Assembly: GCA_965116925.1 (NCBI GenBank)
Contig: OZ220744.1
Span: 448,001-512,000 of the forward strand
Source: Candidatus Poribacteria bacterium
GTDB lineage: Bacteria; Poribacteria; WGA-4E; PCPOR2b
Length of the DNA stretch: 64,000 nt
Direction of reading: 5' to 3'
Below the pieces are notes generated by a model. It was given only the letters and a program-made list of their open reading frames with translations. It was not told the origin of the DNA and searched no databases. Of this stretch, positions 2,973 through 17,504 are shown piece by piece. The position numbers were made by a program, and so were the translations under genes. Position 1 is the stretch's first letter. The number at the start of each line of letters is the position of its first letter.

Positions 2973-3779
2973 ATGAATCATCCAGAATTAACTTTAACCG
3001 ATCGCCGATTCGGTCAAACTAGACGCCACGATGCTTGGTGGGTGCAACCGCTAGTGGTCTTTCTAGGATTATCTATTTTCGGTCTCTATGCAACATGGGC
3101 GGTCTTTCAGGGGGATCATTATCATCACGAGTCATATCTGTCTCCCTTCTATTCGCCGCTGCTATTTGATACCGCAGGACATGATTCAGGACATAGTTGG
3201 TTTGATGGTAAGCCCGACTGGTTGCCTCTCTGGTTTTCACCGGCAATTCTCATTCTTTGGGCACCGCTCGGTTTTCGTTTCACCTGTTACTACTATCGCG
3301 GAGCCTATTACAAAGCTTTTTGGGCGGATCCACCCTCATGTACTGTTAGTGAACCGCGCAAGGGATACCGGGGCGAAGGCTCATTTCCGCTCATTATTCA
3401 AAATGTGCATCGCTACTTCCTGTATCTTGCGCTCGTTTTCATAGTGATTCTTGCCTACGATGCTTGGACAGCATTATGGTTTGACGATGGGAGCGGTGGA
3501 AAATCGTTTGGTATCGGTATTGGTACACTAATATTGACAGGCAATGTTATATTTCTGGGTGGCTACACGCTCGGTTGCCACTCATTGCGCCATCTTGTCG
3601 GGGGCATCCGCGATAGGCTTTCAGGCGCACCCATTCGTCGAACTGCTTACAATTGCGTCAGTTGTTTGAATCGTCGCCACATGCTCTGGGCGTGGATGAG
3701 CCTATGCTGGGTAGGGCTTTCGGACGTTTATGTTCGGTTGTGTTCGATGGGAATCTTGTCGGACTGGAGGATTTTGTAG
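2973..3779 (+). CDS. Succinate dehydrogenase membrane anchor, Sdh1/type-F-like
   Basis: FRFTCYYYRGAYYKAFWADPPSC, QNVHRY, GCHSLRH, RHMLWAW; upstream of flavoprotein and Fe-S subunits. Confidence 0.85.
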   Translation: MNHPELTLTDRRFGQTRRHDAWWVQPLVVFLGLSIFGLYATWAVFQGDHYHHESYLSPFYSPLLFDTAGHDSGHSWFDGKPDWLPLWFSPAILILWAPLGFRFTCYYYRGAYYKAFWADPPSCTVSEPRKGYRGEGSFPLIIQNVHRYFLYLALVFIVILAYDAWTALWFDDGSGGKSFGIGIGTLILTGNVIFLGGYTLGCHSLRHLVGGIRDRLSGAPIRRTAYNCVSCLNRRHMLWAWMSLCWVGLSDVYVRLCSMGILSDWRIL

Positions 3780-5593
3780 TGGCACAATACGAAACGCATG
3801 AATATGATGTGTTAGTCATCGGGGCAGGCGGTGCAGGTCTGAGAGCTGCTATCGAAGCCTCGGCTGCCGGTGTGTCTGTAGGACTGATCTGTAAATCTTT
3901 GCTCGGCAAAGCGCATACGGTTATGGCGGAAGGTGGTGTTGCTGCAGCACTAGCAAATGTTGACGAGCGAGATGGATGGCGCGTTCACTTTGCTGACACC
4001 ATGCGAGGCGGTCAATATCTGAACAACTGGCGCATGGCAGAACTTCACGCCAAAGAAGCCCCGGACCGAGTCCACGAATTAGAAGCGTGGGGCGCACTGT
4101 TTGACCGGACGCAGGACGGACGCATCTTGCAACGAAATTTCGGTGGTCATCAATACCCTCGACTTGCTCATGTTGGGGATCGCACCGGGTTGGAAATGAT
4201 TCGTGTCCTGCAAGACCACGGTATCCATCAAGGTGTTGATGTCCACATGGAATGCACAGTCATATCGCTGCTGAAAAACGACGGTCGCGTTGTTGGAGCC
4301 TTCGGTTACGAGCGCGAGAAAGGGCGGTTCAAGGTGTTCTCCGCCAAAGCGGTTGTGCTTGCCACCGGTGGTGTGGGCAAGGCTTATAAAATTACGAGCA
4401 ACAGCTGGGAATATACCGGCGATGGACACTCGCTCGCCTACCATGCAGGTGCCGAATTAATTGACATGGAGTTTGTACAGTTTCATCCAACCGGCATGGT
4501 TTGGCCCCCCAGTGTGCGGGGTATACTAGTCACGGAGGGTGTCCGCGGTGAGGGCGGAATTCTGACGAATAGCGAGGGGCAGCGATTTATGTTTGACCAT
4601 ATACCGGAGCTTTATCAGAATCAAACCTCTGACGACCCAGAAGAAGGCTGGCGATATACACAGGGCGATCGAGATGCTCGCAGGCCTCCAGAACTCCTCA
4701 CACGTGACCATGTGGCTCGGTGTATTGTTCGCGAGGTACAAGAAGGGCGCGGAAGTCCGCACGGCGGTGTCTTTCTCGATATTTCATGGATCTCGGAAAA
4801 GATTTCCAACGCCGAAGAGCACATCAAACGGAAGCTACCCAGCATGTATCACCAATTTTCGCAGTTAGCGGATATTGATATCACCAAAGAACCGATGGAG
4901 GTGGGACCAACGACCCATTACATCATGGGCGGTATTCGGGTAGATGCCGACTCACAGATGACCTCGGTGCCGGGGCTTTTCGCGGGGGGTGAATGTGGTG
5001 CAGGATTGCACGGTGCGAATCGATTAGGCGGCAACTCGCTCTCTGACCTGCTGGTTTTTGGTAAGCGTGCAGGTGAGTACGCCGCACAATTTGCCAAAGA
5101 AAATGGTGCAGGTGAAGTAGACGCAGCGGAGATCGAGGAAGTTGCAAGTTGGGCGTTAAAGCCTTTCGACAACGCAGCGGGTGAGAATCCATTCCAAATT
5201 CAGTACGATTTGCAAGATATGATGCAAGATCTCGTTGGCATCGCTCGGAGCGACGAAGGGCTAAACAACGCCCGCGAAGAACTCCAGAAACTCACAGAAC
5301 GCTCCGACCAAGCGGGGGTCGTTGGGAATCGTGAGTATAATCCGGGTTGGCACACAGCACTGGATCTGCATTGCATGCTCACAATATCTGAAGCTATTGC
5401 GCTTGCAGCGTTGGAACGAAGGGCAAGCATCGGTGCCCATTCTCGTGACGATTATCCTGAGAAAGAGGAACCGGGGGCAGGTAGGTATAACACCGTCGTC
5501 CGCAAGAATGCAGATGGTGAAATGGAGGTCACTCGGGAGCCGATACCCGAAATTCGCGAAGACCTCCAAGCAGTGATAGAGGAGATGGGCTAA
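3779..5593 (+). CDS. sdhA: Succinate dehydrogenase/fumarate reductase flavoprotein subunit
   Basis: GAGGAG, HTVMAEGG, QFHPTG, TEGVRGEGG, HYIMGG, HGANRLGGNSL; GTG start overlaps upstream stop. Confidence 0.95.
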   Translation: MAQYETHEYDVLVIGAGGAGLRAAIEASAAGVSVGLICKSLLGKAHTVMAEGGVAAALANVDERDGWRVHFADTMRGGQYLNNWRMAELHAKEAPDRVHELEAWGALFDRTQDGRILQRNFGGHQYPRLAHVGDRTGLEMIRVLQDHGIHQGVDVHMECTVISLLKNDGRVVGAFGYEREKGRFKVFSAKAVVLATGGVGKAYKITSNSWEYTGDGHSLAYHAGAELIDMEFVQFHPTGMVWPPSVRGILVTEGVRGEGGILTNSEGQRFMFDHIPELYQNQTSDDPEEGWRYTQGDRDARRPPELLTRDHVARCIVREVQEGRGSPHGGVFLDISWISEKISNAEEHIKRKLPSMYHQFSQLADIDITKEPMEVGPTTHYIMGGIRVDADSQMTSVPGLFAGGECGAGLHGANRLGGNSLSDLLVFGKRAGEYAAQFAKENGAGEVDAAEIEEVASWALKPFDNAAGENPFQIQYDLQDMMQDLVGIARSDEGLNNAREELQKLTERSDQAGVVGNREYNPGWHTALDLHCMLTISEAIALAALERRASIGAHSRDDYPEKEEPGAGRYNTVVRKNADGEMEVTREPIPEIREDLQAVIEEMG

Positions 5594-6339
5594 TGGCAAC
5601 AGCAACGTTCAGAATATGGCGAGGCGACGCTAATGAAGGGAAATTCGTCGACTATGAAACAGAGGTCTCTGAAGGGATGGTGGTTCTCGATGTCGTTCAT
5701 AAGATTCAGGCGGAACAGGCGAACGATCTCGCAGTACGCTGGAACTGCAAAGCCGGGAAGTGCGGATCCTGTTCGGCAGAGGTCAACGGAAATCCCAAGT
5801 TGATGTGTATGACCCGGCTTAACGACATCCCGCTTGATGCGCCGGTGACGGTTGAGCCGATGCACGCATTTCCGCTCATCAAGGATTTGGTCACCGATGT
5901 TTCGTGGAACTTTGAAGTCAAGAAAAAAATTAAACCGTTCAATCCAAGACCACCTGACGCTGAAGACGGTACTTGGCGAATGGCACAAGAGGACATTGAT
6001 CGCGTACAAGAATTTCGCAAATGTATCGAATGTTACCTATGTCAGGATGTGTGCCATGTGCTGCGCGAGCATGATCTGCACGACAAGTTCATCGGTCCCC
6101 GATTTTTCGTTTACGCCGCGGCTCTGGAGATGCATCCTCTTGACAATGAGAATCGGCTGGAGGAATTGAAAGACACGGATGGCATCGGCTATTGCAACAT
6201 CACTAAATGCTGCACGAAGGTCTGTCCGGAACATATCACGATTACCGATAATGCCATTATTCCACTTAAAGAACGGGTTGTAGACCAATTCTATGATCCG
6301 ATCAAAAAGCTTTTCCGGATTTTTCGACCGCAGAAATGA
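5593..6339 (+). CDS. sdhB: Succinate dehydrogenase/fumarate reductase Fe-S subunit
   Basis: CKAGKCGSC..C, CIECYLCQDVC, CNITKCCTKVCP. Confidence 0.95.
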   Translation: MATATFRIWRGDANEGKFVDYETEVSEGMVVLDVVHKIQAEQANDLAVRWNCKAGKCGSCSAEVNGNPKLMCMTRLNDIPLDAPVTVEPMHAFPLIKDLVTDVSWNFEVKKKIKPFNPRPPDAEDGTWRMAQEDIDRVQEFRKCIECYLCQDVCHVLREHDLHDKFIGPRFFVYAAALEMHPLDNENRLEELKDTDGIGYCNITKCCTKVCPEHITITDNAIIPLKERVVDQFYDPIKKLFRIFRPQK

Positions 6340-6358
6340 TGTAGGTGTGGAGAGGTAA

Positions 6359-7747
6359 ATGCAAACAAGAACTGAATCAGACAGCATGGGGAAGATTGAG
6401 GTCCCAACAGATCGGTATTGGGGAGCACAGACCCAGCGTTCATTGCAAAATTTCAAGATTGGCGGGGAACGCTTCCCGCGTGAGATGATCTGGGCACTCG
6501 GCATCGTCAAGCAATCTGTCGCTGAGGTAAACGCAGGGTTGGGAACGCTAGACGCGGATCTGGCTGAAATTATCATCAAAGCCGCACAAGAAGTGATTGA
6601 GGGCGATCTGGATGATCACTTTCCGCTGGTCGTTTGGCAGACCGGCAGCGGCACCCAAACCAACATGAACGCCAACGAAGTGATATCGAACCGTGCCATT
6701 GAGATGCTTGGTGGCGTCCTCGGCAGCAAAGAGCCCATCCACCCTAACGATCACGTCAACAAATCTCAATCTACCAACGATGCCTTTCCAACAGCTATCC
6801 ATGTCGCTGTTGTTGACCGCATTCACAATCATCTCATTCCTTCGGTGACTGCTCTGCGCGATGCGCTTTCAGCGAAAGCCGAAGCCTTTAAGGATATCGT
6901 TAAAACCGGACGCACTCATCTCCAAGATGCCACCCCGTTGACATTGGGACAGGCGTTTTCTGGATATGTCACGCAATTAAATAATTCGCTCCGCGCAATC
7001 GATCATACGCTGCCACACCTGTATGAACTACCAATTGGTGGGACAGCAGTCGGCACCGGACTAAACGCCCATCCCGAATACGCGACAAAAGCTGCCGCCG
7101 CAATCTCGAAGCGTACCGGATTTTCCTTTGTAACTGCGCCCAACAAGTTTGAAGCTCTCGGTGCTAGAGATGCTATTGTCGAGGCAAGCGGTGCTATCAA
7201 AACCCTAGCATGTGCACTGAACAAAATAGCAAACGACCTCCGCTGGCTTGGCAGCGGTCCTCGCTGCGGCATTGGCGAACTTCTGTTGCCGGAGAACGAG
7301 CCGGGAAGTTCGATTATGCCGGGGAAAGTGAACCCGACACAATGCGAAGCCATGACAATGGTTTGCGCCCAAGTTATCGGCAGCGATACGACGGTTGCTA
7401 TTGCAGGTGCATCCGGCAATTTTGAACTGAATGTGTTTATGCCCGTCATCGCTTTTAACGCTCTCCAATCCATCCGGCTGCTTGCGGATGCCTGTGATTC
7501 GTTCAATGAAAATTGTGTCGTTGGTATTGAGCCGAATCAGGAGAAAATTCAGGAATACCTGAACGATTCACTGATGCTTGTCACCGCGCTGAATCCTTAT
7601 ATCGGCTACGACAACGCAGCGTTGGTCGCCAAAACTGCACATCAGGAAGGCAAAACGCTACGGCAGACTGTGGTCGAACTGAATCTGTTGAGTGAGGAAG
7701 AGTTTGACCGAGTTGTCGTTCCCAGCCAGATGATTGGCCCGAAGTAA
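6359..7747 (+). CDS. fumC: Class II fumarate hydratase
   Basis: [38 protein letters not shown]. Confidence 0.97.
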
Positions 7748-7792
7748 AGTTGACAATTAACACGGATAAAAGACATTATATTTGAAACGAAG

Positions 7793-7851
7793 AGAAACCG
7801 AGTTTTTTCTTGAAAACTCGGTTTCTGTTGCGCGCTTTCTCAACATGAGCC
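7793..7851. repeat. Palindrome (GAAACCGAGTTTT...AAAACTCGGTTTC) plus element end, family D
   Basis: Same palindrome at ~25996, ~26469, ~45162; end ...CTTTCTYAACATGAGCC shared with 16371-16484. Confidence 0.75.
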
Positions 7852-7896
7852 AAAAATATAATACGTTAATGGAAAATCGACATTGGAGGGAGAAGG

Positions 7897-9840
7897 ATGT
7901 ATAAAAAAATCTATGTACCGGTTGACAACTCGGACCATTCCGATGCAAGCGTCAATTTCGCTGTAGAGTTCGCCAAAAAATTTCAATCGCAACTCGTTGG
8001 CTCTCATGTCTATGCCGCGAAGATGCACGATGTTCGCTTCAAACAGATGGAGTACACGCTGCCCGAAGAATATCAAGACGAAGCTGAACTTGAGAAGCAG
8101 CGCCGAATCCATGACACATTGATTACGATGGGACTTCAGTTAATCTCTGATTCCTACCTAGAAGTCATGAAGAATAAATGCGCCGAAAATGACATCCCCT
8201 TTGAAGCCAAAATGCCTGAAGGCAAACACTTCATCAAGTTGGCGGAAGACATCCAGGCGAGCGATTACGACCTCGTGATCATGGGTGCTCTCGGTATGGG
8301 AGCCGTTAAGGATAGTCTACTCGGCGGCGTTGTTGAACGGGTTGTGCGGCGTATTGAGACTGATACCCTTGTAGTCCGAAATATAGAAGCTATGCACGAG
8401 CAGAAGGGGCATATTCTCGTTGGGATCGATGGCAGCCCTGAGTCCTTTGGTGGATTGAAAACAGCAATCCGGCTCGGCAAGGCGTTCGGTAGACAGGTTG
8501 AGGCAGTTGGTGTCTACGACCCGTATCTCCACTACGTGGTTTTCAATTCGGTCGTCAGCGTCCTGACAGAGCGAGCCTCCAAAACCTTCCGATTCAAAGA
8601 GCAGGAACAATTGCACGAAGAAGTAATTGACACCGGGCTTGCCAAGATCTATCAATCCCATCTAGAGATTGCCCGGACCATCGCCAAGGAAGACCACAAC
8701 TACGACCTCAAAATCACCTTGCTGGATGGCAAAGCGTTTGAGAAGATCCTGCAATACGCCCGAAAGACTGAACCGTGGATGTTGATGCTGGGCAGAATCG
8801 GTGTCCACAGCGATCCCGATATGGACATCGGCAGCAATACCGAAAACTTACTGCGCCTTGCCCCGTGTAATGTATTCCTGTCGAGCCAGCGGTACGTTCC
8901 CAAAGTTGATGTCAGAGCGGAGGAGACGGTGGTCTGGACACAGGAAGCCTTAGATCGGATGTCAAAAGCACCACCGCAGGTGCAGGGTATCGCACGCACC
9001 GCTGTTCACCGTTTTGCCATTGAACGCGGACACTCCGTGATTACCGAGAGCGTCATTGAGCAGGCGATGGAGACCTTTATGCCGGGACGCTCAGCGGAAC
9101 GGATGACCAAGGTTGCCAAAGAGATTGCAACGCAAACGGTTTTGGATTCCAATGCGATTAAGACCTACATCTGTGGCGATTGTGGTTATGCCGCCCGCGA
9201 CCAAGAGCCCGTGAAATGTCCCGTCTGCGGCGTGGACGGTGACCGATTCCAGATGGTCGATAAAGATTCGCTCCAGAGGGTTGCGGATCAGGAGGGCGGC
9301 GTGAGTGAAGAGCAAACCTTCGACGGTGTGCGCCTCCAGTGGTCAGATCAGGCGAAAAAGGCTTTACGGAATGTCCCACGAGGATATATGCGTCGCAACG
9401 TCAAAGCGCGAATCGAAAAATCGGCGCGTGTCCAGAAAATCGGTACAATCACCAACGATTTTGCGATGCAGATCATCAACGAGAGCATGGATCAGGCGTC
9501 CGCTGTCCGCGAAGACGCGCCCGAACTGAAAGCTGTCGCACAGTCCCGTGAGTCCGCTGATACCTCCCAAGAAGAAACATTTGAGAGTTCACTTGAATGG
9601 ATGCCAGATGCCCGTGCACGGTTGGATCTCGTGCCCGCTGGGTTTATGCGAAATATCACGCAATCCCGTGTCGAGCAGCGAGCGCAGGAAGCGAACCTCA
9701 CGACAATCAACCTAGATTTTGCAGCGCAGGTGATTGAGGAAGGACGGAGTCTGGACAATGAGGTGCTTGGGACATATTACCAACAGGCCGAACACCCTGC
9801 TGAAGCGGAGAGTGATGAAGAGGAGCCGACGCAAGCGTAA
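7897..9840 (+). CDS. Multidomain protein: 2x USP + PCP_red-like + rubredoxin-like + 2x PCP_red-like
   Basis: KKIYVPVDNSDHS/GALGMG..GGVVERVVR and ILVGIDGSPES/GSNTENLLR USP domains; CGDCGY-x10-CPVCG; three W(T/S/M)xxA...P...R...I(T/N) modules. Confidence 0.85.
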   Translation: MYKKIYVPVDNSDHSDASVNFAVEFAKKFQSQLVGSHVYAAKMHDVRFKQMEYTLPEEYQDEAELEKQRRIHDTLITMGLQLISDSYLEVMKNKCAENDIPFEAKMPEGKHFIKLAEDIQASDYDLVIMGALGMGAVKDSLLGGVVERVVRRIETDTLVVRNIEAMHEQKGHILVGIDGSPESFGGLKTAIRLGKAFGRQVEAVGVYDPYLHYVVFNSVVSVLTERASKTFRFKEQEQLHEEVIDTGLAKIYQSHLEIARTIAKEDHNYDLKITLLDGKAFEKILQYARKTEPWMLMLGRIGVHSDPDMDIGSNTENLLRLAPCNVFLSSQRYVPKVDVRAEETVVWTQEALDRMSKAPPQVQGIARTAVHRFAIERGHSVITESVIEQAMETFMPGRSAERMTKVAKEIATQTVLDSNAIKTYICGDCGYAARDQEPVKCPVCGVDGDRFQMVDKDSLQRVADQEGGVSEEQTFDGVRLQWSDQAKKALRNVPRGYMRRNVKARIEKSARVQKIGTITNDFAMQIINESMDQASAVREDAPELKAVAQSRESADTSQEETFESSLEWMPDARARLDLVPAGFMRNITQSRVEQRAQEANLTTINLDFAAQVIEEGRSLDNEVLGTYYQQAEHPAEAESDEEEPTQA

Positions 9841-9849
9841 AATCATGTC

Positions 9850-10731
9850 TTGAATATCAATTTAGATCGGAGTTTGCCAATGCACCCCAGAGATCCGTTA
9901 CATTTTGGGGAAATTCTTGTGTGTCTCGACGGCTCAAGCTATTCGCAGGCGGCGGTCGAATATGCCACGCAAATCGCTCTTGAACATAACGCCTCACTAA
10001 CCGGCATCGGGGTGATCGACCTACCGGGCCTTCAACGTGCAAGTGGGCCCGCACCGATTGGAGCGATGCACTACGATCAACTTGCTGACCAGCAGCACTT
10101 CCAAGAGACGCGAAAGATAGTGGCTAGTATCCTTAAAGACTTTGGGAACACCTGTCAGGAAAAGGGAATCCACCACTCCATCCATTCAGAGATGGGCAGC
10201 CCATTTCGGGAAATTATCGAAGAATCGAAATTCCACGATTTTATTATGATCGGGCAGAAGACCTTTTTTCGGTATAACGTCAGACACGAACCGGGGAACA
10301 CCTTAGACCGAATTCTTCATAACGGGCTGACCGCGGTCCTTGCAGTACCCGATTCTGTCAGACCGATTAAAAAAGTGCTCGTCGCTTATGATGGCAGCGT
10401 CCAAGTTACCAAAGCAATCCAGATGTTTCTCCTACTTCATATCTGGAATCAGTGCGACATCACCCTCCTGAATGTCAACAATAATGCCAGTCGTGGAATA
10501 CAGTTGCTCGGCAGGCTTGGTGATTACTTCCGTAGGTATGGGGTGCAGACCGAGAAGGTCCAATTGAAAGGGAGGACAGATGAAGCCATCCTGTCCTACA
10601 TCCAAGAACATGAAATTGATCTGCTCGTCATGGGAGCGTATGGGAAGCGAAGCGTATCCGAGTTCGTCTTCGGCAGCGTAACCAAATCCTTAGTAGCGCA
10701 GGCGGGTATTCCGTTGTTTATCTATCATTAA
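9850..10731 (+). CDS. Tandem universal stress protein
   Basis: ILVCLDGSSYS, KVLVAYDGS, LLVMGAYGKRSVSEFVFGSVT. Confidence 0.9.
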   Translation: MNINLDRSLPMHPRDPLHFGEILVCLDGSSYSQAAVEYATQIALEHNASLTGIGVIDLPGLQRASGPAPIGAMHYDQLADQQHFQETRKIVASILKDFGNTCQEKGIHHSIHSEMGSPFREIIEESKFHDFIMIGQKTFFRYNVRHEPGNTLDRILHNGLTAVLAVPDSVRPIKKVLVAYDGSVQVTKAIQMFLLLHIWNQCDITLLNVNNNASRGIQLLGRLGDYFRRYGVQTEKVQLKGRTDEAILSYIQEHEIDLLVMGAYGKRSVSEFVFGSVTKSLVAQAGIPLFIYH

Positions 10732-10740
10732 CCGAGATTT

Positions 10741-11625
10741 ATGAAAACCTATAAAGACCTCCCCGCCGATGGCGGCTCTAACATCGTTGAACAAGTAACA
10801 CAGCAAGTCAATCGTTTGCAAAAGCGACTTGCGTCAGTTGGTAATACTGTTGCTATCATGAGTGGAAAGGGTGGCGTGGGCAAGAGTTCAGTCACTGCAA
10901 ACCTCGCGTCGGCACTTAGGTTGCGCGGGCACACTGTTGGTGTGATTGATGCTGACATCAACGGTCCCTCGATTGCTAAAATGATGGGCGTCAGAGGACA
11001 GCAAATTGATTATGGAACTGACGGTGTTAAACCCGCTCTCAGTCCACTTGGGGTCAAGGTAATGTCGATGGATTTATTCCTCAAGGACGACGAAACGCCA
11101 GTTCTCTGGGAAGCCCAAACACAGAAGGATGCCTTCACTTGGCGGGGGACAATGGAAATGAGTGCCCTCCGCGAATTTCTCTCCGATACTGAGTGGGGAA
11201 CCCTTGACTATTTGTTGATCGATCTTCCCCCCGGTACTGACCGTTTGCCCAATCTCGTCGATCTCCTACCGAATCTTGGTGGTACAGTTGTTATTACAAT
11301 CCCTTCTGGGGTGTCGCAGCTTGTCGTAAAAAAGTCGCTGACAATGGCAAAAAAACTGCTCAACGCACCGGTGATCGGCGTCGTCGAAAATATGGCCGCT
11401 TATGTCTGCGCTGATTGTGGTAAAACCGAAGATCTGTTCCCATCGGGGCACACAGAGGAGATGGCACGTCAATTTGACGTTTCCCTACTCGGCAAAATCC
11501 CTTTCGATCCACGAATCTCTATTGCAGCGGATGAAGGCACTGTATTCGTCGATCAATACGGGGATACTCCCGCAGGACAAACATTTTTCGGCATCACAGA
11601 TAAAATTCGGATGTTCTTTAAATAG
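10741..11625 (+). CDS. Mrp/NBP35 (ApbC) family ATPase, Fe-S carrier-like
   Basis: SGKGGVGKS, DADINGPS, WRG, WGTLDYLLIDLPPGT, ENM..CADC. Confidence 0.92.
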   Translation: MKTYKDLPADGGSNIVEQVTQQVNRLQKRLASVGNTVAIMSGKGGVGKSSVTANLASALRLRGHTVGVIDADINGPSIAKMMGVRGQQIDYGTDGVKPALSPLGVKVMSMDLFLKDDETPVLWEAQTQKDAFTWRGTMEMSALREFLSDTEWGTLDYLLIDLPPGTDRLPNLVDLLPNLGGTVVITIPSGVSQLVVKKSLTMAKKLLNAPVIGVVENMAAYVCADCGKTEDLFPSGHTEEMARQFDVSLLGKIPFDPRISIAADEGTVFVDQYGDTPAGQTFFGITDKIRMFFK

Positions 11626-11628
11626 AAA

Positions 11629-11774
11629 TAGGAGTTACGCACTTCAGTTTGTAGTAGCGCAATTCATTGCGCGTTCTTCCCTCCCCCCGCTTGCGGGGGA
11701 TAGAGGGGGGGTGGGGATTTAGGGGGTTAAAAATAAAAAACTCGCCCCGCGTGCTAAATTTGCGTAAATCCTGA
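11629..11774. mobile_element. MITE-like element, family C
   Basis: TIRs TAGGAGTTACGCA / TGCGTAAATCCTG; related copies 26230-26446 and 27632-27673. Confidence 0.7.
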
Positions 11775-11792
11775 TATAAACGGAGTCAACCA

Positions 11793-12296
11793 ATGAAATT
11801 CTTATGTCTTGAATGCAACACAGCGATGGAATTTAAGGAAACAGCGACGCCGGATCAAGGTTCGTTGACGGCGATCTTCGAGTGCCCAGATTGCTTTGCC
11901 GAGTTCGCAATGCACATGAACCCGTGGGAAACCCAGATGCTAAAGTCCCTCGATGTTCAACTCGGTAGCAAGAGCGAAGCAGCACAGCCAATGCAAGTTG
12001 TACGTTCCTTCTTGAGTGAAAAGAACCCCGAAAATCTGACTGCCGATGCCCCAACAGTATCCGCCGAAGGCGGCGGGAAATGCCCGTTCACATCGGTTGT
12101 AGCGGAAGCATTTCAAGAGCCAGCGGAGGCGACCGGACCGGTATGGACACCGGAGGCGTTAGCGCGTTTGGAACGCGTGCCTAGTTTCGTCCGCTCGATG
12201 GCAAAGACCGGCATCGAAGAGTTTGCCCGCGAAAATGGGCACACCGAAATCACCGTCGAAGTAATGGATAGTGCCCGTGGTAACTTTGGAATGTAG
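11793..12296 (+). CDS. Zn-ribbon (CxxC...CxxC) protein with C-terminal PCP_red-like domain
   Basis: CLEC, CPDC, KCPF; WTPEALARLERVPSFVRSMAKTGIEEFARENGHTEIT. Confidence 0.82.
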   Translation: MKFLCLECNTAMEFKETATPDQGSLTAIFECPDCFAEFAMHMNPWETQMLKSLDVQLGSKSEAAQPMQVVRSFLSEKNPENLTADAPTVSAEGGGKCPFTSVVAEAFQEPAEATGPVWTPEALARLERVPSFVRSMAKTGIEEFARENGHTEITVEVMDSARGNFGM

Positions 12297-12308
12297 GAGC
12301 TTATCACA

Positions 12309-13739
12309 GTGGAAACAGAAGACATTCGTCTCACACAAGCCTCAATAGATCTACCATGGTATCCAATTTCACTGCCAGCCATATCAGCGAAGGTTGCCAA
12401 AAAAAATGGTAGGCGGAAACGCCCTGAGTATGATACACATCAACCGATGGAGGTTGTTCGGAGAATTGTGAATCCATTCGGCGAGGAAATTGTACAGGTC
12501 GATGGGGAAATTCCTGTGGAGCTGCCTGTTAATGATGGCGATAGATTTCTGTTTATTAGCTACGATCAGAGCCATCTCACTCACGGATTGCATAAGTATC
12601 CCGCCAAGTTTTTTCCCGAATTACCGCGATGGCTAATCAAACGGTATTCTCAAGAAAACGATATAATTCTTGACCCGTTTTCGGGGAGCGGGACCACAAA
12701 TGTTGAGGCACTCTTGCTAAAACGGCACTCTGTTGGTATTGATGTCGATCCATTTTCTCGTTTCATCTCAACAGTCAAGGTAAGGCCCTTAGCTGAAAAG
12801 GAACTCGTAGAAGCTCAAGAATCTCTGTTTAACGCTGTAGAAGCCTATCAACCCGCTTTGGTATTAGAATCGGATATACCGTCCTTCCCTTACAGGGATA
12901 ATTGGTTCAACAGAGAAATAACTCTAGAATTGGCTTACTTAAAAAAGGTTATTGAGTCCCTTGATAAGAGCGAGCGCGTTAAAGATTTCTTCAAAGTCTG
13001 TTTCTCCTCGATTATCCGTTCCGTGTCCAATGCTGATGATAATTGCACAAGGACTGTCATTCGCAAGGTACTGAAAAAGCAGGTCAATCCTTCCGATGCC
13101 CTGAGAAAATTTGTGGAAACGGTGCTAGTTAAAGTTCCCAAGATGATAGAATTTTCTCAAAACGTACCACAAGACATAACCGTAAGTTTTCCAGAAAACA
13201 TGGACGCACGGAATATCAGGTACGATGGAGGAACTTTTGACTTGGTTCTAACTTCACCGCCGTATGCAAATGCAGTTGATTATCCGAGAACCCATCAACT
13301 GGAGCTCTATTGGTTGGGATTTGCCGATGGTACTTTAACGCCATTAAAGAAACAGCATGTTGGAACAGAAAGTGTTTCATCACAGGATTATCGGACCCGA
13401 CATCAGATCGGTGTGAAGGAGGCGGATAGTGTCATTGAGAAGATTTTTGAACAGGATCCAAGACGGGCGTATATCGCTTTCAAATACTTAGACGATATGC
13501 GGAAAAATCTGTCCGAAGTTTATTCGGTGTTACGCGATGGAGGGCGATACATCATTGTCGTTGGCAATAATCGTATGCGTGGCCAGCTATTTGAAAGTTG
13601 GAAGTATCTGATGACGTTGGCAGAAAACATCGGATTTGAGATTGAAAACTATTTCGGTTCAGAAATTATCAAGCATTTTATTAAAGTCCCCAGAGCGGAA
13701 CGGATCAACACAGACTGGATTCTGGTACTCAGAAAATGA
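12309..13739 (+). CDS. Amino-group DNA methyltransferase (probably N4-cytosine)
   Basis: HKYPAKF, DPFSGSGT (motif I), long insert, TSPPY (motif IV). Confidence 0.9.
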   Translation: METEDIRLTQASIDLPWYPISLPAISAKVAKKNGRRKRPEYDTHQPMEVVRRIVNPFGEEIVQVDGEIPVELPVNDGDRFLFISYDQSHLTHGLHKYPAKFFPELPRWLIKRYSQENDIILDPFSGSGTTNVEALLLKRHSVGIDVDPFSRFISTVKVRPLAEKELVEAQESLFNAVEAYQPALVLESDIPSFPYRDNWFNREITLELAYLKKVIESLDKSERVKDFFKVCFSSIIRSVSNADDNCTRTVIRKVLKKQVNPSDALRKFVETVLVKVPKMIEFSQNVPQDITVSFPENMDARNIRYDGGTFDLVLTSPPYANAVDYPRTHQLELYWLGFADGTLTPLKKQHVGTESVSSQDYRTRHQIGVKEADSVIEKIFEQDPRRAYIAFKYLDDMRKNLSEVYSVLRDGGRYIIVVGNNRMRGQLFESWKYLMTLAENIGFEIENYFGSEIIKHFIKVPRAERINTDWILVLRK

Positions 13740-13748
13740 GATAGAAAC

Positions 13749-14270
13749 ATGAAGATAGCTGAAGAGAGAGGCCGACAAGCATCGATAGATGGCTTTGCAC
13801 ATGAGCACATTGTTGTTGGGCTTTTGATGAAAAGATACCAGAACGTTTCGTTAGTTGATTTGCCTCTATCAACCTATGATATAATCATCGTCCAAAAAGA
13901 TGAAGATGGAAATGATGATATTATTCGAGCTCAAGTCAAGACTGCGACTAGCAGTATTAGCTTTACTGGAGGTTCCAGAGGAGGCGTGGATAGGGAGTAT
14001 AAATCAGGAGTTAAAGAGTATATACAATCGCCAGAAACCGCAGATGTTGTAATTGGTGTTCATCCTATGAGCAACAATTCGTTTGGACTCTATTTTGTTC
14101 CAACTGTTCTTATTAAATCTCTGGATCAGAAAAGTATTTCCATTAACAAGATCAGTGATTTGAAGGAGAATTATTTTATTCTGGAGAACTGTAAAAATTC
14201 AGAGTTGATAATCAGGAAATGCGAAGAATACGGAATCCTCCAGAGGCGTGAACAATATACTCTCTATTAA
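13749..14270 (+). CDS. Putative PD-(D/E)XK endonuclease (candidate restriction enzyme)
   Basis: E...YDIII...RAQVKT; AT-rich; 9 bp after the methyltransferase. Confidence 0.65.
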   Translation: MKIAEERGRQASIDGFAHEHIVVGLLMKRYQNVSLVDLPLSTYDIIIVQKDEDGNDDIIRAQVKTATSSISFTGGSRGGVDREYKSGVKEYIQSPETADVVIGVHPMSNNSFGLYFVPTVLIKSLDQKSISINKISDLKENYFILENCKNSELIIRKCEEYGILQRREQYTLY

Positions 14271-14422
14271 TATCCAATCCTATCTATCTTTGTGGGAGAT
14301 ACATTTTCTGTTCACAGTCGCTCACTAGCTATGATGTGAAATGAGGTGTAAAAATAAAACCTCCCATTTGTAAAATCGTATAAAACGTGATAAGCGGTTT
14401 TGCCCTTACATTTCAATCACTT

Positions 14423-14932
14423 ATGGCTCTAATTGTCGAACTCTTCATCCGTTGGATACATCTTACTGCCGCAATCGTTTGGTTGGGCGGAATCTTTTTT
14501 TCTATCAGCGTTGCAACACCGATTTTGAGGAAGCGTTTTCAAATCCTTGAAAGCGTCCAACATGGGGCCGCGATCCGGAATCGTTTAAGGCATATTATCC
14601 GTTTCACAATCCACATACTCCTAATCACCGGCGCGATGAACCTGTTCATCGTCGGATTGAACACGCAGATGCGCTTTTCTCACGACCGTAGCTATTTTGT
14701 CGTTTTTATCATGAAACTTGCTTTTGTAGGATTGATGACGCTGTTTCATAGCCTGCATATCGCAGTCTTCAATCGAAGGTTAGAATCGGCGGTGGCAAAC
14801 CCGAACTTTGATGCCTCAGAGGTTGCCAAGTTACAAAGGAAAGTAGACCTATTCGGAATTTTTACTATCCTTGCTGGACTTGTTGTCTTTGCATGCGCCC
14901 TGTATCTCCGCCAGATAATAGGGGATCAATAA
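14423..14932 (+). CDS. Four-TM CopD/DUF4149-like membrane protein
   Basis: RWIHLTAAIVWLGG, LLITG, KL..V, HSLH. Confidence 0.7.
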   Translation: MALIVELFIRWIHLTAAIVWLGGIFFSISVATPILRKRFQILESVQHGAAIRNRLRHIIRFTIHILLITGAMNLFIVGLNTQMRFSHDRSYFVVFIMKLAFVGLMTLFHSLHIAVFNRRLESAVANPNFDASEVAKLQRKVDLFGIFTILAGLVVFACALYLRQIIGDQ

Positions 14933-15042
14933 GAATACAAATCACCTCGAAGCATGTGGGCTAGTGTAATCAAAAAAACTCTGCGCTCTCTGCGCCTCTG
15001 CGGTAAAATACATGACAGCATATCAAGCTTTAAGGAACGACC

Positions 15043-16344
15043 ATGGAAACAAAAGTCCAAGCCGTTTCATGGAATATCACACGGCTATGCAATCTCAAAT
15101 GTACACACTGCTATCTCCCCGCTGGGTTTGTGGATACCAACGAGTTTCCGAGTGGATATTATCGAGATACAGAGTTGACCCAATCCCAGTGTTTCCGCGT
15201 GATTGATGAGATTGCCGAAATCAATCCCAACATCCTCCTAATTCTCACAGGTGGCGAACCGCTGCTGCGGCCTGATATTTTGAAAATATCGGATTACGCA
15301 GCTCGAACCGGATTCTTGGTGGTGATGGGCACAAACGGCGTCCTGCTGAACGATGAAACGGTTCAGCGGATGAGCGACCACGGTGTCGCTGGCGCAGGCA
15401 TCAGTCTAGATGCTGTGGATCCGGTCAATCACGACAAATTCCGAGGTATGGACGGGGCTTGGGAAGGCACGATGAACGGCGTCGAAGCCCTCAAGCGGGC
15501 GAACCTCGATTTCCTCGTGCAGACCTCTGTGACCCAATGGAATTACGATGAAATTCCACAAATCGTTGATTTTGCCTATGAACTCGGTGCGAAGGTATTC
15601 AACCTCTATTTCCTTGTCAGAACCGGCAGAGGCAAAACGGTGATGGATATCACGCCAGCTCAATATGAACGTATGCTCTCAACGCTCTTTGAATTGCAAG
15701 CGAAATATCGAGGCAAAATGCTTGTTGCGGCGAAATGTGCGCCACACTACAAACGGGTCATCTATGAGCAACAATCGGATTCGCCTTTCTTGCAAGCCTA
15801 TCCGAGCGGTACATGCCCCTGTGGTATCTACTACTGCCGGATCACACCTGAAGGCGATTTGACACCGTGCCCATATATGCCGGTAAGCGTCGGCAATCTG
15901 AAGACTGAAAGTTTTGCGACCCTCTGGAATCAATCGAAGGTTTTTCATGAACTACGAGATCGGAAATTGTTGGAAGGTAAGTGTGGAGCCTGTGAATTTC
16001 GAGACGTTTGCGGCGGTTGTCGCGCCCGTGCTTATGCCCTCACCGACAACTATCTCGCTGAAGATCCATCCTGCGAATACCAACCGGGACAGGCAGGAAA
16101 TCAAAACATCCGTTTTGAAAAAACGACGCCCTTTGCAGCTGAAACCGACTACGAGTTACAATGGACAGATGCTGCACAACAAAGATTACAGCGTGTCCCC
16201 TCCTTTGCACGGGGGATGGTCACCAAAAGCGTCGAAAAATATGCCCGTGAGCACGGCTACAATGAAATCACGCCGGAAATCATGAAAGCTGTCAAGGATC
16301 GGTTTGATAAAACGGGCATTCCGTCCTTCAGACCCCGGCGGTAA
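15043..16344 (+). CDS. Radical SAM/SPASM protein (AhbD/NirJ-like) with C-terminal PCP_red-like domain
   Basis: CNLKCTHC, TGGEPL, CAPHY, CPCG..PCPY..CGACEFRDVCGGCRARA..C; tail WTDAAQQRLQRVPSFARGMV..YAREHG..IT. Confidence 0.88.
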   Translation: METKVQAVSWNITRLCNLKCTHCYLPAGFVDTNEFPSGYYRDTELTQSQCFRVIDEIAEINPNILLILTGGEPLLRPDILKISDYAARTGFLVVMGTNGVLLNDETVQRMSDHGVAGAGISLDAVDPVNHDKFRGMDGAWEGTMNGVEALKRANLDFLVQTSVTQWNYDEIPQIVDFAYELGAKVFNLYFLVRTGRGKTVMDITPAQYERMLSTLFELQAKYRGKMLVAAKCAPHYKRVIYEQQSDSPFLQAYPSGTCPCGIYYCRITPEGDLTPCPYMPVSVGNLKTESFATLWNQSKVFHELRDRKLLEGKCGACEFRDVCGGCRARAYALTDNYLAEDPSCEYQPGQAGNQNIRFEKTTPFAAETDYELQWTDAAQQRLQRVPSFARGMVTKSVEKYAREHGYNEITPEIMKAVKDRFDKTGIPSFRPRR

Positions 16345-16370
16345 ACTATACCTGACAGACATATTTCCAA

Positions 16371-16484
16371 GACTCATATAAAAAGAAAGTGCAAAATACC
16401 GAAGGAAGCCGTAGGCGGGGCATCTTGCCCCGCCCGTCCGTGCCAAAAACTTAGTTTCTGTTGCACGCTTTCTTAACATGAGCC
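16371..16484. mobile_element. MITE-like element, family D (complete copy)
   Basis: Imperfect TIRs GACTCATATAAAAAGAAAGTGCAA / TTGCACGCTTTCTTAACATGAGCC; flanks ATTTCCAA / ATTTTCAA (8 bp, 1 mismatch); internal GTAG hairpin. Confidence 0.65.
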
Positions 16485-16508
16485 ATTTTCAATTGAGGAG
16501 AGAAAATA

Positions 16509-16922
16509 ATGAGCAGTGAAAACAGAGTTGAAGAACGATTATCCGCGGTCGAAGACCGGTTGAATCGCTTAGAAGATCTACTAGTTGGTATCAGTCAGAA
16601 ACTGGATCAGAAACCTCAACCGACGGCAATTGATGAGGAGAAAGGGGAAGCACTCAAAGGTTGGGTGACCGATTACGTGTCCATGCGCTTGCAGCAACTC
16701 GTACCAGAGACGTGCGACCATCCCGCCGAAGCGAAAGCGGGAGAAGGTCCCTTTTTGGGTAACACCTCAATCCGTTGCACGGAGGAAGTCGTTCACCGTG
16801 TCAAGCGAATCCCCATCCCATTTGTTCGAGAGATGGTTATTCAGCGCGTTGCTGACAATGCCCGGCGTACGAATGTAGATGTGGTCGAAATTGATTTCTT
16901 TGAAAAAGCAGCAACCTTTTGA
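16509..16922 (+). CDS. Coiled-coil protein with divergent C-terminal PCP_red-like domain
   Basis: GAGGAG RBS; VEERLSAVEDRLNRLE; CTEEVVHRVKRIPIPFVREMV..ARR. Confidence 0.72.
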   Translation: MSSENRVEERLSAVEDRLNRLEDLLVGISQKLDQKPQPTAIDEEKGEALKGWVTDYVSMRLQQLVPETCDHPAEAKAGEGPFLGNTSIRCTEEVVHRVKRIPIPFVREMVIQRVADNARRTNVDVVEIDFFEKAATF

Positions 16923-17009: not shown

Positions 17010-17504
17010 ATGTCAACATATCCACTCGATGAAAATCAACGGGAAGCCTATCAAGCCTTAGCCGCTCACATTGATTACGGAACTGAGCACGGGACAATCT
17101 GCCTCGTCGGGGAGTTTCAGTCCGGCAAAACAAACTTGGTTAAGCATTTACTCAATGAAAAATTTGGCAGCTCTACAGGTTATTACGTAAACCTGAATCT
17201 GTATCTGCTCGATGAATTAGACAAGCAGCGGGCATCAATCGCTTACACCGGCGCGAAAGCAAAGATACACCTCCTGATACAGATTGCTATTGAAGACCTA
17301 CTAGACAGGCATTTCCAAATACACAAATTCCTCGTCCTTGATGCTATCGAAATGATATACTCCTACGAACTCAATCTTGTTGCCATTACCGATCGCTTTG
17401 CCCGCGATGGCAAGTGCTGCATCATCTGCGTCCCTGAAAGCAAAAAGCATAATTACTACTTCGACTTTAGCTGGGAACTTGCAGAGGCGATCCGAATCAA
17501 CTGA
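17010..17504 (+). CDS. Small P-loop protein resembling BREX-3 BrxF
   Basis: LVGEFQSGKT (Walker A), VNLNL, FLVLDAIE (Walker B); 164 aa. Confidence 0.55.
   Translation: MSTYPLDENQREAYQALAAHIDYGTEHGTICLVGEFQSGKTNLVKHLLNEKFGSSTGYYVNLNLYLLDELDKQRASIAYTGAKAKIHLLIQIAIEDLLDRHFQIHKFLVLDAIEMIYSYELNLVAITDRFARDGKCCIICVPESKKHNYYFDFSWELAEAIRIN

Follow-up and report, generated by a model that had tools for sequence, protein, structure and literature searches.

A gene cluster of universal stress protein, PCP_red and radical SAM proteins in Candidatus Poribacteria, and its link to the bd-like OR-N enzyme family

Which enzyme is served by a gene cluster in which PCP_red, a domain known only from chlorophyll synthesis, is spread over several proteins? 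The question is raised by a stretch of 64,000 nucleotides (hereafter the window; contig OZ220744.1, positions 448,001 to 512,000) from a sponge-type bacterium placed in Candidatus Poribacteria by named homologues, with a 6.47-Mb, 99%-complete genome; window positions are those of this genome (G000) minus 448000. The cluster occupies 7897..16922, with all of its genes on the + strand. A preliminary description had read it as six PCP_red-like modules on four proteins, co-oriented with a universal stress protein (USP), an Mrp/NBP35 ATPase, a CopD-like membrane protein and a radical SAM/SPASM enzyme, and had suggested that the modules serve as a shared docking tag for a complex that matures a metal cofactor or senses redox state, perhaps for the oxidase and the succinate dehydrogenase (SDH) encoded just upstream. 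The genes are co-oriented and their families are as described, with the CopD match falling under its cut-off. The partner enzyme is a different one, namely OR-N, an unpurified bd-like family that is the proposed oxygen-reducing enzyme of nitrite oxidisers (Nitrospira).

When the whole genome was searched in six frames with PF08369, six matches were returned, all within this cluster and on four proteins. The 647-aa USP-PCP protein (7897..9840, +) carries modules 1 to 3 at 8935..9066 (44.1 bits), 9340..9459 (34.3 bits) and 9598..9720 (35.2 bits); a four-cysteine, Zn-ribbon-like protein with a CPF motif (11793..12296, +) has one at 12144-12278 (73.1 bits), the radical SAM/SPASM enzyme (15043..16344, +) a C-terminal one at 16162-16296 (66.3 bits), and a 137-aa protein (16509..16922, +) a divergent one at 16782-16910. 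Five modules (34.3-73.1 bits) exceed the Pfam gathering cut-off of 32.5 bits. The sixth scores 22.1 bits, and was matched by profile-profile comparison with an alignment of 50 radical-SAM-fused modules (97% probability, E 8e-11), which upholds the original count of six. Among 14 control genomes the same search gave a match in one, a cyanobacterium. Because their pairwise identity is 16-49% and no DNA-level repeat is seen, the modules are regarded as old paralogues and not as products of recent duplication. Their nearest solved sequences are subunit B of dark-operative protochlorophyllide reductase (DPOR; E 1.9e-8 to 2xdq_B) and Asr4154, and modelled module 1 (residues 339-400) has a three-helix fold superposable on the NMR structure 2kru (Z 9.3, rmsd 2.4, 59 residues) and on 2l09 (Z 7.0). 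The likeness to PCP_red is thus borne out by family scores, by sequence and by the fold of module 1. In sequence and in three-helix fold the modules resemble both the DPOR subunit B BchB/ChlB (PDB 2kru, 2xdq, 2ynm) and the stand-alone Asr4154 (2l09), whereas, unlike in DPOR, they are repeated one to six times on USP, radical SAM and four-cysteine proteins of non-phototrophs. The absence of a DPOR core, at first stated for the window, extends to the whole genome, in which PF00148 (nitrogenase-like N/B and Y/Z subunits of DPOR and COR) has 0 matches; this control was positive in 3 of 14 genomes.

The partner gene lies outside the window. A CydA-like subunit of 607 aa is encoded at G000:C1:431384-433207, 22.7 kb before the USP gene; together with three c-type cytochromes it occupies G000:C1:431384-437340, 15-23 kb upstream of the cluster. 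An ABC-2 exporter and the aa3 oxidase genes are also encoded upstream of the window. It matches PF01654 (65.9 bits) over residues 53-305 only, and the alignment of the OR-N profile with solved CydA is confined to the N-terminal 190-270 positions, where both haem-ligand histidines are kept; there is no match to the Q-loop. The subunit has 13 hydrophobic segments, compared with 14 helices given for N1/N2 in the accessible part of the OR-N study (bioRxiv 10.1101/2021.01.16.426971), and strongly matches multi-copy bd-like genes of Nitrospira. By its CydA-like N-terminus without a Q-loop match, its 13-14 or so membrane helices and its adjoining c-type cytochromes, this protein fits the OR-N family (bioRxiv 10.1101/2021.01.16.426971), to which Kuenenia kustd1712 (PMC6423088) also belongs. 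No solved OR-N sequence was found among the PDB matches, and an AlphaFold model of the subunit built from 8 sequences was unusable (pLDDT 50.7).

Presence and absence of the two genes agree closely. An OR-N profile set such genes (E below 1e-96 for full-length genes in one search) apart from weaker matches (1e-22 to 1e-25), which were taken as other CydA types. In the order that contains this bacterium, PF08369 is matched in 35 of 41 Poribacteria genomes, OR-N is found in the same 35, and both are absent from the same six. The USP-PCP protein and OR-N occur in the same 20 of 221 Chloroflexota and in the same 25 of 281 Planctomycetota; in 121 Nitrospirota, the 43 genomes with OR-N are nested in the 45 with USP-PCP. 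Summed over the four groups (664 genomes), 123 have both (four of them centre genomes picked for having the USP), two have the USP only, none has OR-N only, and 539 have neither. OR-N was also present in 10 of 10 distant USP-bearing genomes checked. One poribacterial genome (G020) has lost OR-N and kept its aa3 and Rieske/cytochrome b genes; its remains of the kit, on a contig free of Ns, are relics (USP residues 1-44, Mrp residues 1-133 and a piece of the radical SAM gene with a frameshift), which supports the dependence of the kit on OR-N. The USP-PCP protein is therefore shown to be a near-obligate genetic partner of OR-N, and it is highly probable that the cluster as a whole is linked to this family. 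Service to the adjacent aa3 oxidase and SDH, as first suggested, is rejected. COX1 is present in 40 of the 41 Poribacteria, including all six without modules, from exactly which OR-N is missing, and aa3 persists in G020 too. SDH is likewise not the client, since sdhA is found in 3 of 16 poribacterial loci and the SDH/fumC genes are variable inserts.

The genes were reported to stand together in one genome, and a neighbourhood survey finds them together across many phyla. The USP protein is matched by 328 cluster representatives at E 1e-30 or better, and 44 of 47 inspected carry one to six modules; module-less USP open reading frames (ORFs) number 4 of 130, all four adjoining a module-bearing radical SAM gene. 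Loci were scanned with a 22-row alignment (a 55-row one being too diverse), and the best 80 of at least 591 GTDB loci, biased to close relatives, come from Nitrospirota, Rokubacteria, Rhodothermales, Calditrichia, Latescibacterota, Tectomicrobia, Binatia, Chloroflexota, Dormibacterota, Planctomycetota, TA06 and Actinomycetes. Neighbours in these 80 loci, counted with profiles over all ORFs, are the radical SAM gene (58), the CopD-like gene (36), Mrp (33), the OR-N-associated cytochrome c (29), cox1 (28), a bd-like subunit (24) and the four-cysteine protein (23). The kit is layered. All OR-N types encountered have the USP core with them, the Rieske/cytochrome-b-linked pairs of Chloroflexota and Dormibacterota among them. 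Orthologues of the radical SAM enzyme, 43-56% identical outside Poribacteria, are found in cytochrome-c-linked, OR-N1/N2-like lineages. The four-cysteine PCP protein with Mrp forms a further layer, present in only a subset of USP-positive genomes: in a survey of 80 hand-picked genomes of 153 intended, the four-cysteine N-domain occurs in 24 of 59 USP-positive, 0 of 21 USP-negative and 0 of 9 anammox-type genomes. In Nitrospira, twelve modules are distributed over the USP (three), the radical SAM enzyme (one), an unlinked Mrp/four-cysteine pair (two), a two-module protein within an OR-N operon and a four-module protein. This stand-alone four-module protein (L141:5423-6418, L145:7421-8401) is similar to the C-terminal part that extends the anammox-type radical SAM enzyme (L192:8402-10288), and gene fission or fusion is the likely origin to judge from the sequences. 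In anammox-type NXR clusters, gene order matches Kuenenia kustd1700-1713 with the USP at the position of kustd1706, a gene listed as 'similar to UspA' and transcribed according to the accessible part of PMC6423088.

What the kit does for OR-N can be proposed with less confidence. The preliminary idea of metal-cofactor maturation remains the best reading, now with OR-N as the client: the cluster is considered, with belief somewhat outweighing doubt, to be a cytoplasmic accessory kit for maturation of the OR-N cofactor, most likely a haem. The tandem USP would bind ATP and hold haem, or a modified haem, in a pocket formed by a pseudo-two-fold four-helix bundle with H44, H72, H212 and H240 as ligands, and would hand it over to apo-OR-N. 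The radical SAM enzyme would trim or modify side chains of a haem-type tetrapyrrole, for cytochrome-c-linked OR-N alone, while Mrp and the four-cysteine protein would reload its Fe-S clusters in aerobes. The PCP_red modules, which would expose an R-[VI]-P-x-F-x-R face, may act as small lids of tetrapyrrole pockets or as hand-over domains, and the evidence speaks neither for nor against their use as docking tags; in DPOR, PCP_red is presumably such a lid over the pigment pocket.

The proposed haem pocket would lie in the USP core. The 647-aa protein consists of a tandem USP (residues 1-335, two PF00582 stretches), module 1, a rubredoxin-like CxxC...CxxC knuckle (residues 424-451) and modules 2 and 3. 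The AlphaFold model of residues 1-400 is of high quality (pLDDT 94.5, pTM 0.90) and has a tandem-USP fold (Foldseek E 4e-17; Z 29.5 to 3cis). The ATP-loop glycines G130/G133/G143 and G299/G302/G312-S313 are invariant or nearly so, the window protein having G instead of S at position 144 of domain 1. Both domains, by loop pattern, fit the class of ATP-binding USPs, whose motif we take to be G-2x-G-9x-G-(S/T). Both domains contain a long helical insert that bears a histidine pair, H44/H72 and H212/H240, at equivalent positions of the two halves and 28 residues apart in each. These four, with H37 and H304, are kept in 85-87 of 88 diverse sequences, and two of the six lie at ordinary USP core or ATP-loop positions. 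Fold searches matched the His-bearing inserts to nothing beyond USPs, and the ESM Atlas gave generic USP clusters only. Known tandem USPs (Rv2623 3cis, TTHA0350 3ab8, UspE) have the fold (Z 24-29.5, 13-22% identity) and ATP-loop glycines in common with this protein, which differs from them in its helical His-pair inserts, its PCP_red tail and its strict co-occurrence with one respiratory enzyme family. A complex prediction of the USP core with haem and the radical SAM PCP module, from 50-row alignments, scored 0.00 in both runs and is evidence neither way. USPs are generally regulatory, the fold matches include cation-chloride transporters whose regulatory tails are tandem USPs, and the number of modules per USP varies from 0 to 6 while the core is retained. 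An ATP- or redox-sensing subunit or switch, in which the His bundle or the knuckle reads O2 or redox state to control OR-N assembly or activity, would suit these traits, as would the rise of UspA proteins, not shown to be of the same family, under low O2 in N. marina (PMC8115632, accessible part). However, such a switch leaves unexplained why the kit has a radical SAM enzyme, an Mrp paralogue and a membrane protein of its own and why these decay jointly with the USP upon OR-N loss, and near-perfect retention from strict anaerobes to aerobes better fits an indispensable factor; a regulatory role is thus held to be unlikely.

The Mrp/ApbC-type Fe-S carrier ATPase (10741..11625, +; PF10609, 257 bits; without an N-terminal extra domain) keeps its P-loop, DLPPGT and CxxC in 47 homologues and lies below the equivalog cut-offs for ApbC (181/348 bits) and MrpORP (259/450 bits). 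A second Mrp elsewhere in the genome is 38% identical, which marks the cluster Mrp as a dedicated paralogue. It is like the Mrp/ApbC/NBP35 carriers in its deviant P-loop, DLPPGT, C-terminal CxxC and PF10609 match, and differs from known Mrp/ApbC proteins in its own N-terminal motif and its pairing with the four-cysteine PCP_red protein, which accompanies Mrp in Nitrospira too, as a pair unlinked to the USP. The four-helix membrane protein of CopD/DUF4149/UPF0093 type (14387..14932, +) has four hydrophobic segments and a conserved W-x-H-L motif; it stays below the CopD cut-offs (PF05425 26.9/32.1 bits, NF033808 28.1/195 bits), a homologue weakly matches UPF0093, and in 26 of 28 Nitrospirota loci the gene adjoins the radical SAM gene. 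The 137-aa protein is found mostly in Poribacteria, with look-alike clusters from Poribacteria and Rokubacteria, and comprises a predicted N-terminal coiled coil, read from sequence, and a conserved middle motif ahead of its module. A metal kit could be built from these parts, with the CopD-like protein importing copper, the six near-invariant USP histidines binding metal, and Mrp with the four-cysteine protein supplying an OR-N metal site (Cu or Fe). Beyond the CopD score and the histidines, copper sites proposed in one bd-like subunit (PMC8115632, in the text accessible) and the ABC-2 exporter that accompanies many loci speak for it. The CopD match under cut-off, the UPF0093 likeness, the ordinary position of two of the six histidines and the tetrapyrrole-modifying group to which the radical SAM enzyme belongs speak against it, and metal supply is judged quite unlikely.

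The radical SAM enzyme inclines the proposal towards haem. PF04055 and PF13186 are matched above cut-off, and the CxxxCxxC and SPASM cysteines are conserved in 74 sequences. Its best NCBIfam profiles are AhbD TIGR04545 (324 bits), NirJ2 TIGR04055 (304), TIGR04053 (275) and NirJ TIGR04051 (191), with peptide maturases at 162 bits or less; it stays below the cut-offs of TIGR04545 (500), TIGR04055 (500) and TIGR04051 (515) and below that of TIGR04053, and full-length orthologues reach 294-336 bits on TIGR04545. With AhbD, NirJ2 and NirJ of haem d1 synthesis it has in common the CxxxCxxC core, the SPASM cysteines and the top profile scores. It differs in falling under the cut-offs, in its C-terminal PCP_red, in its separate place in the tree, in sharing genomes with a true AhbD and in decaying upon OR-N loss. 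Five genomes with the PCP-bearing enzyme also hold an AhbD-like paralogue scoring 440-527 bits (above 500 in G384 and G271). In a quick tree of 35 rows, made without bootstrap and with long outgroups, eight AhbD-like paralogues form their own group (SH-aLRT 94) with none of the 25 PCP-bearing rows inside. In this genome, the PCP-bearing enzyme is the only AhbD-like protein, no strong AhbC-like paralogue was found, and HemE, ferrochelatase and a chlorite dismutase/ChdC-like gene (the last without NCBIfam assignment) are present. Sequence comparison makes it probable that the enzyme is something other than the housekeeping haem b synthase, an identity disfavoured by its co-existence with higher-scoring AhbD paralogues and by the tree. 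The closest solved structures are PqqE and SkfB, with no AhbD-type entry among the matches, and SPASM enzymes often act on peptides; formylglycine-enzyme-fold genes lie between OR-N genes in Nitrospira. The enzyme might then modify the OR-N protein itself by cross-linking or residue conversion, with the USP-PCP protein as a substrate-presenting chaperone, but tetrapyrrole profiles are ahead by more than 140 bits and the enzyme is missing with Chloroflexota-type OR-N pairs, which makes this improbable. General haem supply, with the radical SAM enzyme as the lineage's AhbD haem b synthase for aa3, SDH and cytochromes and the other genes as helpers, is very improbable: the top family match to AhbD without a closer one in the genome, the position after ctaA/ctaB/cox in Poribacteria with cox1 in 28 of 80 distant loci, and the ChdC-like gene trailing the cluster in several Poribacteria favour it, whereas aa3 is kept in genomes without the kit or with a decayed one, genomes with the PCP-bearing enzyme often encode a separate AhbD that falls in its own tree group, the genome has HemE, ferrochelatase and the ChdC-like gene, and in 28 Nitrospirota loci the USP has no cox1 nearby.

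Haem maturation for OR-N is preferred on indirect grounds. The first is that the best profile matches of the radical SAM enzyme are tetrapyrrole enzymes, above peptide maturases. It is further preferred because PCP_red is also found on DPOR subunit B and on a NIR_SIR protein next to a sirohaem decarboxylase pair. In anammox-type genomes (L193:8665-10563, L195:6695-8549, L196:5890-7765), PCP_red is fused to this NIR_SIR/ferredoxin Fe-S protein, whose gene is directly upstream of two sirohaem decarboxylase (AhbA/B-type) genes and which is perhaps a sirohaem-handling partner. Cys-Pro motifs, which we take to be haem-binding, stand ahead of the modules in the four-cysteine protein, as they do in some USP tails (9 of 87); these motifs, and a PNPOx-like barrel fused to or flanking some USPs, add to the leaning. 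This PNPOx-like split-barrel family, known from weak Pfam matches, adjoins the USP in 13 loci from several phyla (for example L128:9195-9932, L121:11560-12291 and L047:7889-8689), is fused to it in P0133, P0174 and P0186, and is absent from this genome. In one Chloroflexota locus (L149:276-1874), a C-terminal PCP_red is found on a multi-pass membrane transporter, MFS-like by sequence.

Several observations weigh against the proposed kit. In two fragmented Nitrospirota assemblies the USP is present and a full OR-N gene is not; one (G271) has fragments at contig ends and the other (G287) none. E-value thresholds ranged from 1e-10 to 1e-40 from one search to another, and scoring was confined to the top first-look candidates. 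Related genomes are not independent, as five of the six poribacterial negatives belong to one family and most planctomycetotal positives to one anammox-type group. The USP and OR-N are linked in many genomes and could move as one block; in Nitrospira their co-occurrence is not mere linkage, because the single USP gene of G367 (one contig) lies more than 230 kb from four OR-N paralogues and that of G350 about 515 kb from its one OR-N gene. As to function, no radical SAM orthologue turned up in the 20 OR-N-positive Chloroflexota, nor in G049 and G050, and a haem made by it is therefore not shared by all OR-N enzymes. Of the 59 USP-positive genomes, 35 have no four-cysteine PCP protein, among them all 9 of the anammox type. 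PCP_red occurs outside the USP system, on DPOR subunit B and the NIR_SIR protein, and the module is accordingly not specific to OR-N. The four histidines could equally bind Cu or Fe, and copper sites have been proposed in a bd-like OR-N subunit (PMC8115632, accessible part). In anammox NXR clusters the OR-N reaction is open to readings other than O2 reduction, the role of O2 reductase being a proposed one. Taken together as a single claim, maturation of OR-N by an ATP-gated four-His USP haem chaperone or insertase, with an undescribed tetrapyrrole made by the radical SAM enzyme for cytochrome-c-linked types and PCP_red as a general tetrapyrrole hand-over domain borrowed by DPOR, is tentative and rather doubtful.

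The surroundings of the kit are variable. Between the four-cysteine and membrane-protein genes lie a DNA methyltransferase (12309..13739, +; PF01555) and a probable restriction nuclease, labelled from context without a family match (13749..14270, +). With 43% and 38% GC against about 50%, and presence in 2 and 1 of 16 Poribacteria loci, they are inserts outside the system. At this site (12309-14270) and in adjacent gaps, other Poribacteria carry GmrSD, Nmad3, a PQQ-type propeller, Bmp, OsmC or PhyH, as in an insertion hot spot. Among the 16 loci, which span 16-20 kb so that some misses are genes beyond range or split off, Mrp and the four-cysteine gene occur in 15, the radical SAM and 137-aa genes in 13, and the free-standing USP in 8; the latter (9850..10731, +; PF00582) is an ordinary tandem USP and a variable accessory or passenger. 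The cluster sits after ctaA/ctaB/cox genes in every Poribacteria locus read, and in several maps sco is directly followed by the USP gene, without SDH between. The SDH/fumarate-reductase-like operon with fumC (2973-7747), present at this site in some Poribacteria only, encodes a 268-aa membrane subunit without a Pfam match, and the genome has a further sdhA at another site, with 31% identity to this one. An intergenic palindromic repeat (7790-7852, 16446-16485 and about 11630-11770) has 373 BLAST matches genome-wide, 314 of at least 35 nt; related strains are without some of the repeat-bearing stretches, and it behaves like a mobile REP/MITE-type element. A small P-loop protein at 17010-17504, found in 3 of 16 loci, has a weak likeness to BREX-3 BrxF with no other BREX genes adjoining. 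A block encoding a 124-aa hypothetical protein, a HEAT protein, DUF420 and the chlorite dismutase/ChdC-like protein, which trails the cluster in other Poribacteria, is here 3.9 Mb away (G000:C1:4397000-4399300, L150). A promoter/terminator scan gave 10 and 12 sites against 16.3 and 13.3 expected. RNA-sample contigs are available in 12 sets; 2 of the 4 compared look like DNA carry-over, and such contigs cannot show transcription, strand or operon structure. Most Poribacteria searched have two cytochrome b genes, one of them upstream of the OR-N cluster (here G000:C1:419256 and G000:C1:5993443). Replacement of complex III by OR-N in Poribacteria, an idea taken from G020 and G027, is rejected: cytochrome b is present in 40 of 41 genomes, one copy here lying ahead of the OR-N genes. 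An alternative complex III of NrfD type was looked for in this genome and not found.

Altogether, the system is real and conserved and apparently undescribed. No accessory or maturation factor for OR-N is named in the accessible parts of bioRxiv 10.1101/2021.01.16.426971 and PMC6423088, and literature searches covering few subscription journals found no paper tying a USP, PCP_red or radical SAM protein to OR-N, the accessible parts of PMC3578206, PMC12022308 and PMC13474568 included. By analogy, the kit works like an oxidase cofactor-maturation set, built from parts without a known role there and for an uncharacterised enzyme family. CtaA/CtaB/Sco serve aa3 and the Nir genes serve cd1. To our knowledge, no oxidase maturation set contains an ATP-binding USP or PCP_red modules. 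A dedicated haem-related role is described for CydDC of canonical bd (PMC13337084, accessible part). Like CydDC, CtaA/CtaB/Sco and the Nir genes, the kit would be dedicated to a single terminal enzyme, accompany it from genome to genome and provide its haem, while having no proteins in common with them.

The finding touches on long-standing questions, namely how Nitrospira and its kin reduce O2 and what the bd-like gene does in the anammox NXR cluster; the oxygen affinity of OR-N is still described as unknown (PMC12342949, accessible part). If OR-N needs the USP-PCP protein, and in many lineages the radical SAM enzyme, this could explain a possible failure of plain expression and would name the genes for co-expression. 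The USP core is a single-copy marker for OR-N in genomes. If the proposed role is true, a 'stress protein' family would have a specific biochemical job, a new haem derivative may exist, and PCP_red would gain a general role.

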